A stretch of DNA of 64,000 nt from a virus (lineage: Duplodnaviria; Heunggongvirae; Uroviricota; Caudoviricetes): IMG/VR virus record IMGVR_UViG_2531839666_000014; one strand, given 5' to 3'. The position numbers are program-made. Positions 33,001 to 36,000 of this stretch are shown here, piece after piece (position 1 is the first letter of the stretch; the number at the start of each line of letters is the position of its first letter).

Positions 33001-36000
33001 CCTGTCGGGAGATATCAGCGACCATCGCGTGAAATTTGGCATTTTGATCGAGATTCCGCTTGTAATCGGTGATGCGGATCGTAACGGGTTTGTCTTTATC
33101 GAGAGTTGTTGCAAGGATGGCGTTAATGGCGAATTGTTGCTGCTGCTTACTTCGGAGGAAGATAGTCTGGTTCATTATTCCCTCTCATTGGATTTTCCCA
33201 ACAAAAAAGGAGCCGAAGCTCCTTTAGTTTCAGAATTCAAATTGTCTTGCCCGTAGTTGCGCCAGCATGCTTCTGGCCCTATGCACCATATAGTTGGCGG
33301 GATCAAGTTTTGCTGCTTCGCGGAGCAATGTGTCGCGAGTCCGGTTGGTTATATGACGAGTCTCGTAGGCCAGATCAAACAGTTTCCCGTAGTAATCAGA
33401 GTTCAGTTCTCTCATGACGGGGTATAGCTGCTTACTGAGTTGTTGTGCTTTTTCCATCCAGAGTTGAACGTAGCAGAGTAGGATGATGTCTTCTGCTGTG
33501 AATTGCGGCTGAATATGAGGTTGTAGCGGTATAGCGCTTTTTTCAGCTTCACGGTCCAGAATATCCAATACCCAGCGACGGAACTCTTTGGCTACTGGAG
33601 TTGTTGCGAACATCGCTACCAGGTGGGCACCGCGTAGAGAGAAAATACGCACATCTTTCTCTCGTAAGCTATTGTTGATCCCGTTGAACCTCATTTTGAG
33701 GTTGATTGACATACAAGGAGTAAACTCATCCGAATTGCGGTTGTATATCTGGGTGATTTTATCGCCGCGCGAATACTCCAGTGCTGAAGCCAAAGTCGCG
33801 GCAGTGAACCACTGTTTGCCGTCGTGTTCGATCGTTTCAAGAACGTGGGATTTGAATACGAGTTGAGTGCTCATAGTTTTATGTCCTTGTATTTTTTGTT
33901 CAGAATCCCTGTGTTCAGCAGGGCGGTCGGGTACTTGAACACCGCATACAAGAACGGCCCGTATCCTTAGCCTTGCGGCTGTTTTTCGGTATACGCGCTA
34001 CCCGACCATATCTGAAAAATGGACATAAAAAATCCGCATGACTGACGGGTGCGGCTTCCGCTTGTATAGGTGTGTTCAGCACCTTGGTGCGGAATATATC
34101 CCCGTTAATGCGGATTTGTCAAATCTGGCCTTAAAACTCGAATTGTCTTGCCCGCAGGCTTTTCAGCATTGGCATGGCCCGCTGGATAACGGAACTTGAC
34201 ATGTCGAGACGTGTTACCTCCCTCAGTAGCGCGTCTCTGTTCTTCGTCACCATGTAGATGGTCTCAAACGCAATGTCATACAGCTTGTTCGTGTATGAGG
34301 AGTTCAGCTCTTTCATTATAGGGTACAGGTGTTTGCTGATGTCCTGGGCTTTTTCCATCCAGAGCTGCATGTAGCAAAGGAGGATGATTTCCTCGGCTGT
34401 GAATTGTGGCTGAATCTGCGGCTGCTGTTCGGTTTGTGTTGTTTTTCCCTGGCTGAAATAGCAGTCTTCCAGTTTTTCGAACACTTCCCATGCCTGATCA
34501 GTTTCGAGCATTTTTGCGTGACGGGCTGCCCCGCGTTCTGTCCAGAGGATGAGGTGCTTTGTACGCGGTGCAACTAAGTTACTTTGAGTAACCTTGTTCT
34601 TAAATTCCCGCAATCCAGCCCCTTCCAATTTGAAGTAGTGTTTCCCACAAACAAAACGCTCGGCATTGCGTGTATAGTTCACTTTGATGTTATTAGTTTC
34701 GGTGCCATAAAGTTGTGCCAAAAGCTCGGTGGTAATAACAGGAATCTGGTTATGGGTAATCGGGGAGATGGTTTCAACAGAGATTTGAGTTGTCATAATG
34801 ACGCCCTCTAGTGGTTTCTAAACTATCACCACCGTAAGGTTCCAATCATCGGGTGGTGAGACGCACAGGGTTGGAACTACCGGGAAACCGACCGGCGAGC
34901 TTTTCAGCTCCCCCATGCGCCCCACCATAATTCAGATGTGCGCGTGCATACGACAATAAAAAACACGCTCGCGGCGTGTGTTTGTCGCGGTCTCTATCCG
35001 GGGTTCCAATCCCGACGGCCAACTCGACCGTGCGAAGAATATAATCCCGGATAAGTGTTGTCGTCAACTCAGCATTGATGTTGTATTAATTGACAACGCT
35101 ATGCACTGTTGTTATCCTTAACAACATAAATACACGGAGTTTTTATGCCATCCAGACTGTATAAAGAGTTCATTCGCCATCTTGGGGAATCCGAATACAT
35201 AAGGATTAAAATCTGGGAGGTGGCTCCAGCCGTTCTTGGTAGCCGCCATAACTTCAAATACAGCATGGCTTACGTTGTTGATGGTGTTTGCGTCATGCGC
35301 TACGACAACGAAAGAGGTAAAGGCGACCACAAACACATTGGTGCTCAGGAAATCAGTACCCACTTTGTTTCCATCGAGCAACTCATTGCTGACTTCCTCC
35401 ATGATGTAGAATCCATTCGCAGAGGTGCCTGATATGAAAACAGTTACAATACGTATTGAATCAATGGATGCTTTCACGGCAGATGTGTTGTCTGCCTTTA
35501 AAGCGGTTGCCGAAGGAATGACGTCAAAGAACGAAAGCATCGTTTCATTCCCAGACTGGCAAATGATGCATAAAGTGCTTACCCCTAAGCGCATGGACAT
35601 ACTCATGGCGATGACTGGTGCCGGAGAACTGTCAATCCGTGAGATTGCCGCTCTGGTCGGGCGTGACGTAAAAGCCGTACACACGGATGTAACCGCACTG
35701 ATTAGCAACGGCCTCCTGGAAAAAGGAGAAAATGGAACATCTTTTCCGTATGACGACATCCACTTTGATTTTACGCTGGGTAAAGCTGCGTAAAATTCAC
35801 CGCGCCGTCATTCTGGCGGCGCTTTACCCCAGAGAAATATCAATCACCGGATTGCCACATCCCACTCCGGCTCCTGCCATCTCAAATCCGGTGAATCATT
35901 TCTCGCCGGAATAACCATTACGTCCTTTTCCCTCCGCTCCCTTTCTATCGCCATCACAGCCAATGCTGCAACCATGATGTATTTTTGCTCGTCGGTTCCC

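Follow-up and report, generated by a model that had tools for sequence, protein, structure and literature searches.

The TumE-TumA superfamily of toxin-antitoxin (TA) systems was defined by Durairaj et al. (Nature 2023, PMC10584680). Its DUF6516 toxins were described as alpha+beta proteins, in which an antiparallel seven-stranded sheet is packed by two helices, without a relative in the PDB; the toxin gene lies predominantly downstream in the bicistrons of clusters 1, 2, 4 and 6, and diverse, unrelated antitoxins are allowed as partners (PMC10584680). Six gammaproteobacterial pairs of subcluster 1a, from Thioploca, Thiothrix, Crenothrix, Methylotuvimicrobium, an Ectothiorhodospiraceae bacterium and Allochromatium, have been validated: the toxins are toxic in Escherichia coli and are neutralised by their partners, and TumE of Allochromatium tepidum lowered 35S-Met incorporation (PMC10584680). 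A literature search on TumE, TumA, DUF6516 and HVO_A0114 returned nothing but this founding paper, its preprint, one passing citation and a genome note on Halococcus. Here we describe a two-gene cassette, tumE-tumA (tumEA), in the tailed-phage record IMGVR_UViG_2531839666_000014 of IMG/VR, a stretch of 64,000 nucleotides (nt) that is referred to below as the window and to which all coordinates apply.

Sequence identity over the region is 100% both with Escherichia phage phiSTEC1589-Stx1c (PQ600364) and with prophages of nine complete E. coli genomes, STEC1589 and STEC1590 among them. A member of the genus Diegovirus, this short-tailed phage can be induced, and its lysogens of MG1655 and MC1061 are stable (PMC12029490).

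Other type II TA systems offer further points of comparison. In HigB-HigA, MqsR-MqsA and HicA-HicB, as here, the toxin gene precedes the antitoxin gene, the antitoxin is the larger protein and carries the DNA-binding domain, and palindromic operators overlap the promoter. A HigB/HigA cassette takes the identical slot in related Shiga toxin (Stx) prophages. Unlike toxins of the HigB type, however, TumE shows no RelE/barnase-like similarity in fold or sequence (PDB sequence and structure comparison), and TumA is an HVO_A0114 winged helix rather than an Xre/Cro-type helix-turn-helix (HTH) protein. The phd-doc operon of phage P1 is likewise a small autoregulated TA operon of a temperate phage, and Doc and HokD modules occur in the same neighbourhood as the present cassette in O104:H4 and other Stx prophages. 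The P1 prophage is maintained as a plasmid, and post-segregational killing has been demonstrated for it. The phiSTEC1589-Stx1c prophage, by contrast, is integrated, at dmsB (PMC12029490).

We consider it likely that the cassette is an autoregulated type II TA operon of the TumE-TumA superfamily, carried as a self-contained moron antisense to the pR operon of a Stx1c lambdoid prophage. The family names of both genes are already known from RefSeq annotation; new here are the conserved toxin-first pairing, the operator architecture, its covariation with the recognition helix of TumA and the exchange of the cassette for others in the same slot.

The tumE and tumA genes and their conserved pairing

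The cassette comprises the following features:

35079-35098, plus strand: distal candidate operator O2, TGTTGT-attaattg-ACAACG, an imperfect 6-N8-6 palindrome overlapping the -35 hexamer
35090-35118, plus strand: sigma-70 promoter, TTGACA (35090-35095), 17 nt, TATCCT (35113-35118), with an extended -10 TG at 35110-35111
35107-35126, plus strand: proximal candidate operator O1, TGTTGT-tatcctta-ACAACA, with the -10 hexamer in its spacer
35136-35139, plus strand: Shine-Dalgarno sequence GGAG of tumE, 5 nt 5' of the ATG (direct reading)
35145-35432, plus strand: tumE, encoding a 95-amino-acid (aa) putative toxin of the TumE/DUF6516 family, identical to WP_001141115.1
35434-35793, plus strand: tumA, encoding a 119-aa winged-helix protein of the HVO_A0114 family, putative antitoxin and autorepressor, identical to WP_000860148.1
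35802-35822, plus strand: 3' stem-loop with a 9-base-pair (bp) stem and a 3-nt loop, followed by UUUA; right end of the mobile unit

A preliminary description of the window had placed two plus-strand open reading frames (ORFs) of 95 and 119 aa here, with stop and start one nucleotide apart, and had pointed out that the combination of a small protein and an HVO_A0114-like winged helix-turn-helix (wHTH) protein has been annotated as a TumE/TumA-type system. Both statements are borne out. The TGA of tumE (35430-35432) is separated from the ATG of tumA (35434) by a 1-nt gap, and the Shine-Dalgarno sequence of tumA, GAGG, sits within the 3' end of tumE. Profile searches place each protein well above the respective Pfam cutoff: the tumE product matches PF20126 (TumE, formerly DUF6516) with 53.7 bits against a cutoff of 23.4, over profile positions 6-81 of 81, and the tumA product matches PF25212 (HVO_A0114) with 86.3 bits against 27.6, besides weaker matches to MarR/ArsR-type winged helices. 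The Prokaryotic Genome Annotation Pipeline (PGAP) accordingly names the first gene 'toxin-antitoxin system TumE family protein' and the second 'HVO_A0114 family putative DNA-binding protein'; despite the former name, no NCBIfam model matches TumE. In the GenBank phage record both genes are still labelled hypothetical, and their only matches in PHROGs are to families 16135 and 11214, both of 'unknown function'. In Pfam and PHROGs no match links either protein to phage structure or replication, so that the result which the preliminary description had named as speaking against its TA reading did not appear.

With the TumE-TumA systems the pair shares membership of PF20126 and a bicistronic arrangement with a DNA-binding partner, and the fold predicted for its toxin is likewise of the alpha+beta type and lacks a PDB relative. 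TumE found no match in the PDB by sequence, nor did its predicted model among solved folds. The AlphaFold2 (AF2) model is confident (predicted local distance difference test, pLDDT, 94.8) and consists of six beta-strands and one C-terminal helix. PF20126 is present in all 120 homologues among the matches listed, and across 42 diverse homologues 14 residues are invariant (H35, K38, Y39, D54, N55, E56, G58, K59, G60, D61, H62, H64, L80 and F84), all of which are kept in TumE of phiSTEC1589-Stx1c. The conserved motif YDNERGKGDHKH maps to the last part of strand 4, the turn that follows and strand 5 of the model, where we infer a site for catalysis or metal binding.

The AF2 model of TumA (pLDDT 77.5) combines a less confident N-terminal beta-alpha-beta segment (residues 1-40) with a confident winged helix (42-112), whose helices span residues 51-60, 68-75 and 79-91 and are accompanied by a wing. 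The closest solved folds in the PDB are wHTH regulators of the ArsR/MarR type, while PDB searches by sequence gave marginal ArsR matches only. At NCBI, TumA homologues (113-122 aa, HVO_A0114-type) are often recorded as 'glycosyl transferase family 1', which looks like a propagated mis-annotation.

The pairing of the two genes is not peculiar to this phage. In a survey of 80 IMG/VR viral loci and 80 species-representative genomes, a TumA-like gene lies directly 3' of tumE on the same strand in 75/80 and 77/80 cases, respectively (152/160 overall). The tumE-tumA order and its near-zero spacing hold down to 38% TumE identity, and the similarity scores of the two genes to the reference pair are correlated (Spearman 0.52). 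A TumE profile search at E <= 1e-3 retrieved 1,992 clusters (50% identity), mostly of 91-138 aa. Homologues occur in Enterobacteriaceae, Rhizobiales, Burkholderiales, Chromatiaceae and some metagenome-assembled genomes from outside the Pseudomonadota. The cassette itself is rare, being found in 21 of 5,426 complete E. coli genomes and in one of 50,697 GenBank phage records; it also occurs in 71 plasmids, mostly of Acetobacter and Rhizobium.

Candidate operators and the recognition helix of TumA

The preliminary description had credited the cassette with its own near-consensus promoter, TTGACA-17-TATCCT. The sequence is present, with 10/12 matches in a consensus scan, but a match of this quality is by itself no better than chance, with two in 1.5 kb against a shuffle mean of 2.5. 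The position of the promoter is, however, conserved among homologous cassettes, and it is for this reason, rather than for its consensus match, that we take it as real.

Two palindromes are superimposed on this promoter, O2 on the -35 and O1 around the -10 hexamer. The arms of O1 are perfect to 8 nt (TGTTGTTA/TAACAACA, 100% complementary), and the two-operator layout recurs in diverged cassettes. When distinct loci were searched for a perfect 6-N8-6 palindrome within 80 nt 5' of tumE, one was found at 34/63 viral loci and in 49/80 genomes, as compared with about 1.1-1.2 (maximum 6) in shuffles and 2 in coding controls; across the family the enrichment over shuffles is about 30-40-fold, and an 8-nt spacer is the favoured palindrome geometry. 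At 22 of the 34 viral loci a -10 element (TAnnnT) lies inside the palindrome spacer. The arms also change in pairs between lineages, giving TGATGT/ACATCA, TGTTGG/CCAACA, TGTTGC/GCAACA and GTATTG/CAATAC.

These changes can be set against the recognition helix of TumA, RDVKAVHTD (residues 77-85). At base 3 of the half-site, T accompanies V or I at TumA residue 79 (41 cases) and A accompanies F or M (13 cases), a 41/0/0/13 distribution with zero exceptions; at base 6, G accompanies G or A at residue 84 in 16/17 cases and T accompanies other residues in 30/34, all of these being counts that ignore phylogeny. Because operator bases track recognition-helix residues in this way, the comparison argues strongly that TumA dimers would bind these operators and repress their own operon, in the manner of classical type II TA systems.

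In distant tumEA loci the 3' operator arm often ends in the start codon (ACAAC-ATG), 6-8 nt past the -10 element. This arrangement is seen at 13/34 viral and 15/49 genomic loci with a perfect palindrome (L031, L034, L039, L046, L047, L065, L080, L081 and others) and suggests leaderless tumE mRNAs. In the cassette of phiSTEC1589-Stx1c, unlike these loci, a leader of 26 nt that contains GGAG precedes tumE.

A mobile unit and its insertion slot

The cassette ends in a stem-loop with an energy of -16.5 kcal/mol (z = -2.6). A variant of the cassette that is 77% identical retains this stem-loop, with a G.U change that is compensating. The preliminary description had called it a closing hairpin, and in position it is one; as a canonical intrinsic terminator it was rejected, since it lacks a U-tract and fails a terminator scan. 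The 77%-identical tumEA unit resides in a different prophage, where it aligns to 35092-35827 and is again antisense, inserted between ash-family and DUF4222/Rha genes. The limits of the cassette as originally proposed, 35090-35825, therefore nearly coincide with the unit that moves, and, as judged from these alignments, the cassette is a swappable unit reaching from promoter to hairpin. In one carrier of the variant (E. coli RMDEC465, L087 3056-3091), the start of tumE and its promoter share their sequence with the 5' end of an 'ash family protein' gene that is annotated as convergent.

A further claim of the preliminary description, that the cassette lies antisense within a minus-strand early-right operon, is borne out by the RefSeq annotation of E. 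coli STEC1590, whose prophage is identical. This operon runs on the minus strand throughout from cII to stx1c (cII, replication genes, DUF1627, DUF977, two hypotheticals, ORF6N, BRO, NinB, NinE, RusA, NinH, Q and stx1c), and tumE and tumA are the only plus-strand genes in that stretch. AT skew changes sign over the cassette to a plus-strand pattern; GC content does not set the cassette apart as foreign.

The cassette adjoins a small RNA (sRNA) and antirepressor module, made up of the following features:

35038-35067, minus strand: isrK promoter, TTGACG-18-TATATT, divergent from and back-to-back with the tumE promoter
34958-35031, minus strand: isrK sRNA (Rfam, 54.9 bits, above the gathering score)
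34849-34932, minus strand: C4 antisense RNA (Rfam, 71 bits, above the gathering score)
34131-34796, minus strand: ORF6N/P22_AR_C antirepressor-like gene (Pfam), preceded by the tandem isrK and C4 RNAs

Homology with about 690 E. coli genomes spans C4, isrK and the isrK promoter and then breaks, which places the left breakpoint at ~35068. It resumes at ~35799 in prophages in which a RelE/ParE(HigB)-HigA pair replaces tumEA. In O104:H4 2011C-3493 the same slot contains RelE with an HTH protein, and Doc and HokD come next; in 2012EL-2448 it contains ParD, a hypothetical protein and HigA; it is empty in Sakai Sp5 and others, and further prophages carry RelE-HTH and hokD on the opposite side of ORF6N. 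The isrK-C4-ORF6N neighbourhood of lambdoid Stx prophages (L084, L085, L002, L168-L170) is thus a hotspot of TA exchange. The family matches support the type II TA reading put forward in the preliminary description, and the replacement of this exact unit by other TA cassettes supports its view of the cassette as self-contained.

Several other features of the surroundings were noted. The isrK-C4-antirepressor module is arranged in a way reminiscent of P1 immI or of isrK-anrP in Gifsy-1. A second unit of this kind consists of a match to sRNA-Xcc1 (33917-34007, minus strand, 68.6 bits) directly 5' of a Bro-N and P22_AR_C gene (33230-33874, minus strand), and the phage therefore carries two tandem sRNA-before-antirepressor modules. 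Downstream of the stx1c genes lie two tandem copies of the STnc100 sRNA (28979-29192 and 29254-29465, minus strand; 198 and 139 bits). To the right of the cassette, among minus-strand hypothetical genes, a 96-aa plus-strand ORF (36235-36525) has no Pfam match, is left unannotated by PGAP and is probably spurious.

Proposed mechanism, alternative readings and significance

Taken as an autoregulated TA operon, the cassette would work as follows. In the lysogen it would be transcribed from its own sigma-70 promoter, and coupled translation would yield both TumE and TumA. TumA dimers on the two TGTTGT-N8-ACAACA operators, at the -35 and -10 elements, would keep the operon repressed, and TumE would be sequestered by TumA, probably via the N-terminal beta-alpha-beta segment of the latter. 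Should the supply of TumA fail, either through loss of the prophage or when an infecting phage halts host transcription or translation, free TumE would block translation and arrest growth, probably by means of invariant His, Asp, Glu and Lys residues that cluster on the beta4-turn-beta5 hairpin. The likely pay-off would be prophage retention, abortive infection or both. The sequence comparisons show the family membership, the conserved pairing, the operator architecture with its covariation and the exchange of whole cassettes; in this scheme we infer the toxicity of TumE, its neutralisation, translation as the target, the lability of the antitoxin and the biological role of the cassette.

A number of observations weigh against this assignment. 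Besides the chance-level promoter match, the covariation counts that take no account of phylogeny and a terminal hairpin that falls short of an intrinsic terminator, these are chiefly departures from the validated TumE-TumA pairs. Here the toxin comes first, whereas the partner is usually upstream in cluster 1; one cluster-1 partner has been described as a remote RelB homologue, whereas TumA is an HVO_A0114 winged helix; and the TumE model has six strands and one helix, as against the seven strands and two helices described for the family. Validated antitoxins measure ~75-105 aa and validated toxins ~110-135 aa, as estimated from the lengths of the synthetic DNAs, as compared with a toxin of 95 aa and a partner of 119 aa here. 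The validated pairs come from environmental Gammaproteobacteria (subcluster 1a), whereas the subtype that combines a short TumE in first position with an HVO_A0114 partner is phage-borne here and known from sequence alone. For validated TumE itself, RNase activity is an unproven proposal (PMC10584680), and PADLOC gave no match for TumE. Since diverse antitoxins are allowed within the superfamily, however, the toxin-first order marks the cassette as belonging to a different subclass within the superfamily.

The most serious alternative is that the pair acts mainly in anti-phage abortive infection or superinfection exclusion rather than in addiction: TumA would run short or lose its activity once a phage infects, and TumE would then kill the cell or halt its growth ahead of progeny release. 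As a moron in a prophage, with a promoter of its own from which it would be expressed in the lysogen, the cassette would be suited to such a role. It also occupies a hotspot at which several TA families are swapped, and the swapping of TA families at one slot is a typical pattern of prophage defence islands; the TumE family is moreover found in at least 85 IMG/VR viral contigs. A search of defence models, which the preliminary description had envisaged for the pair, nevertheless speaks against it: PADLOC-DB v2 holds no model that matches TumE, and TumA found only weak matches of its generic wHTH region to Csa3/CasR/CARF models (E-values 1e-6 or weaker). The literature searched holds no paper that ties TumE to phage defence, and the family is also common on Acetobacter and Rhizobium plasmids and on chromosomes, a distribution which fits addiction equally well. 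A mainly defensive role is therefore possible in our view, though doubtful. Still less should be expected of TumA as mainly a regulator of the adjoining isrK-C4-antirepressor module, with TumE as a co-factor and the cassette tuning prophage induction. The geometry invites the idea, in that the tumE and isrK promoters stand back-to-back with -35 hexamers 22 bp apart, O2 is 12 bp from the isrK -35, and a lone TGTTGT half-site (35056-35061) lies in the spacer of the isrK promoter. Yet the identical isrK promoter, half-site included, is found with unrelated cassettes or none, which makes such control improbable; tumEA is also found where isrK is absent, both in another prophage and in hundreds of non-phage genomes, and the operators cover the cassette's own -35 and -10.

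It is hardly conceivable that the real gene is instead a 213-aa minus-strand ORF (35118-35759) co-oriented with the pR operon, and that the plus-strand ORFs are spurious. This ORF is the longest over the region and lies on the operon strand, but it has no Pfam match and is not called by PGAP, and we rejected it as a shadow ORF; both plus-strand ORFs have curated-family matches, hundreds of homologues and conserved synteny, and the AT skew follows their strand. The antisense placement might, lastly, be functional in its own right, the cassette sensing the state of the prophage and releasing TumE on induction. With pR silent in the lysogen, tumEA would be expressed and self-repressed; on induction, N-antiterminated transcription from pR would run head-on through the cassette, and collision and antisense RNA would stop tumEA synthesis. 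The antitoxin would then decay and TumE be freed at a defined time, either helping to shut off host translation in lytic growth or limiting induction. We regard this as a long shot; if it were true, the presence of HigBA, RelE and ParD in the same antisense slot would point to 'induction-coupled toxin release' as a general design among Stx phages, which might in turn influence Stx output.

Read as an autoregulated TA operon, the cassette leaves current understanding in place: TA modules are commonplace in prophages, this pair is already named in RefSeq, and neither the operator code nor the TA hotspot comes as a surprise, useful though both additions are. Their value lies in what they add to a superfamily that so far rests on one paper and six validated pairs from environmental Gammaproteobacteria. 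The cassette offers a tractable example of a toxin-first subclass with an HVO_A0114 partner, carried by a Stx1c phage that can be induced and for which MG1655 and MC1061 serve as lysogenic hosts (PMC12029490). Its operator architecture and its two-position recognition code are directly checkable, the latter pairing V/I79 with T3 but F79 with A3 and linking residue 84 to base 6. The hotspot by the isrK/C4-antirepressor module shows where Stx phages swap their TA cargo, and this could affect how stably prophages are kept and how they are induced in Shiga-toxin-producing E. coli.

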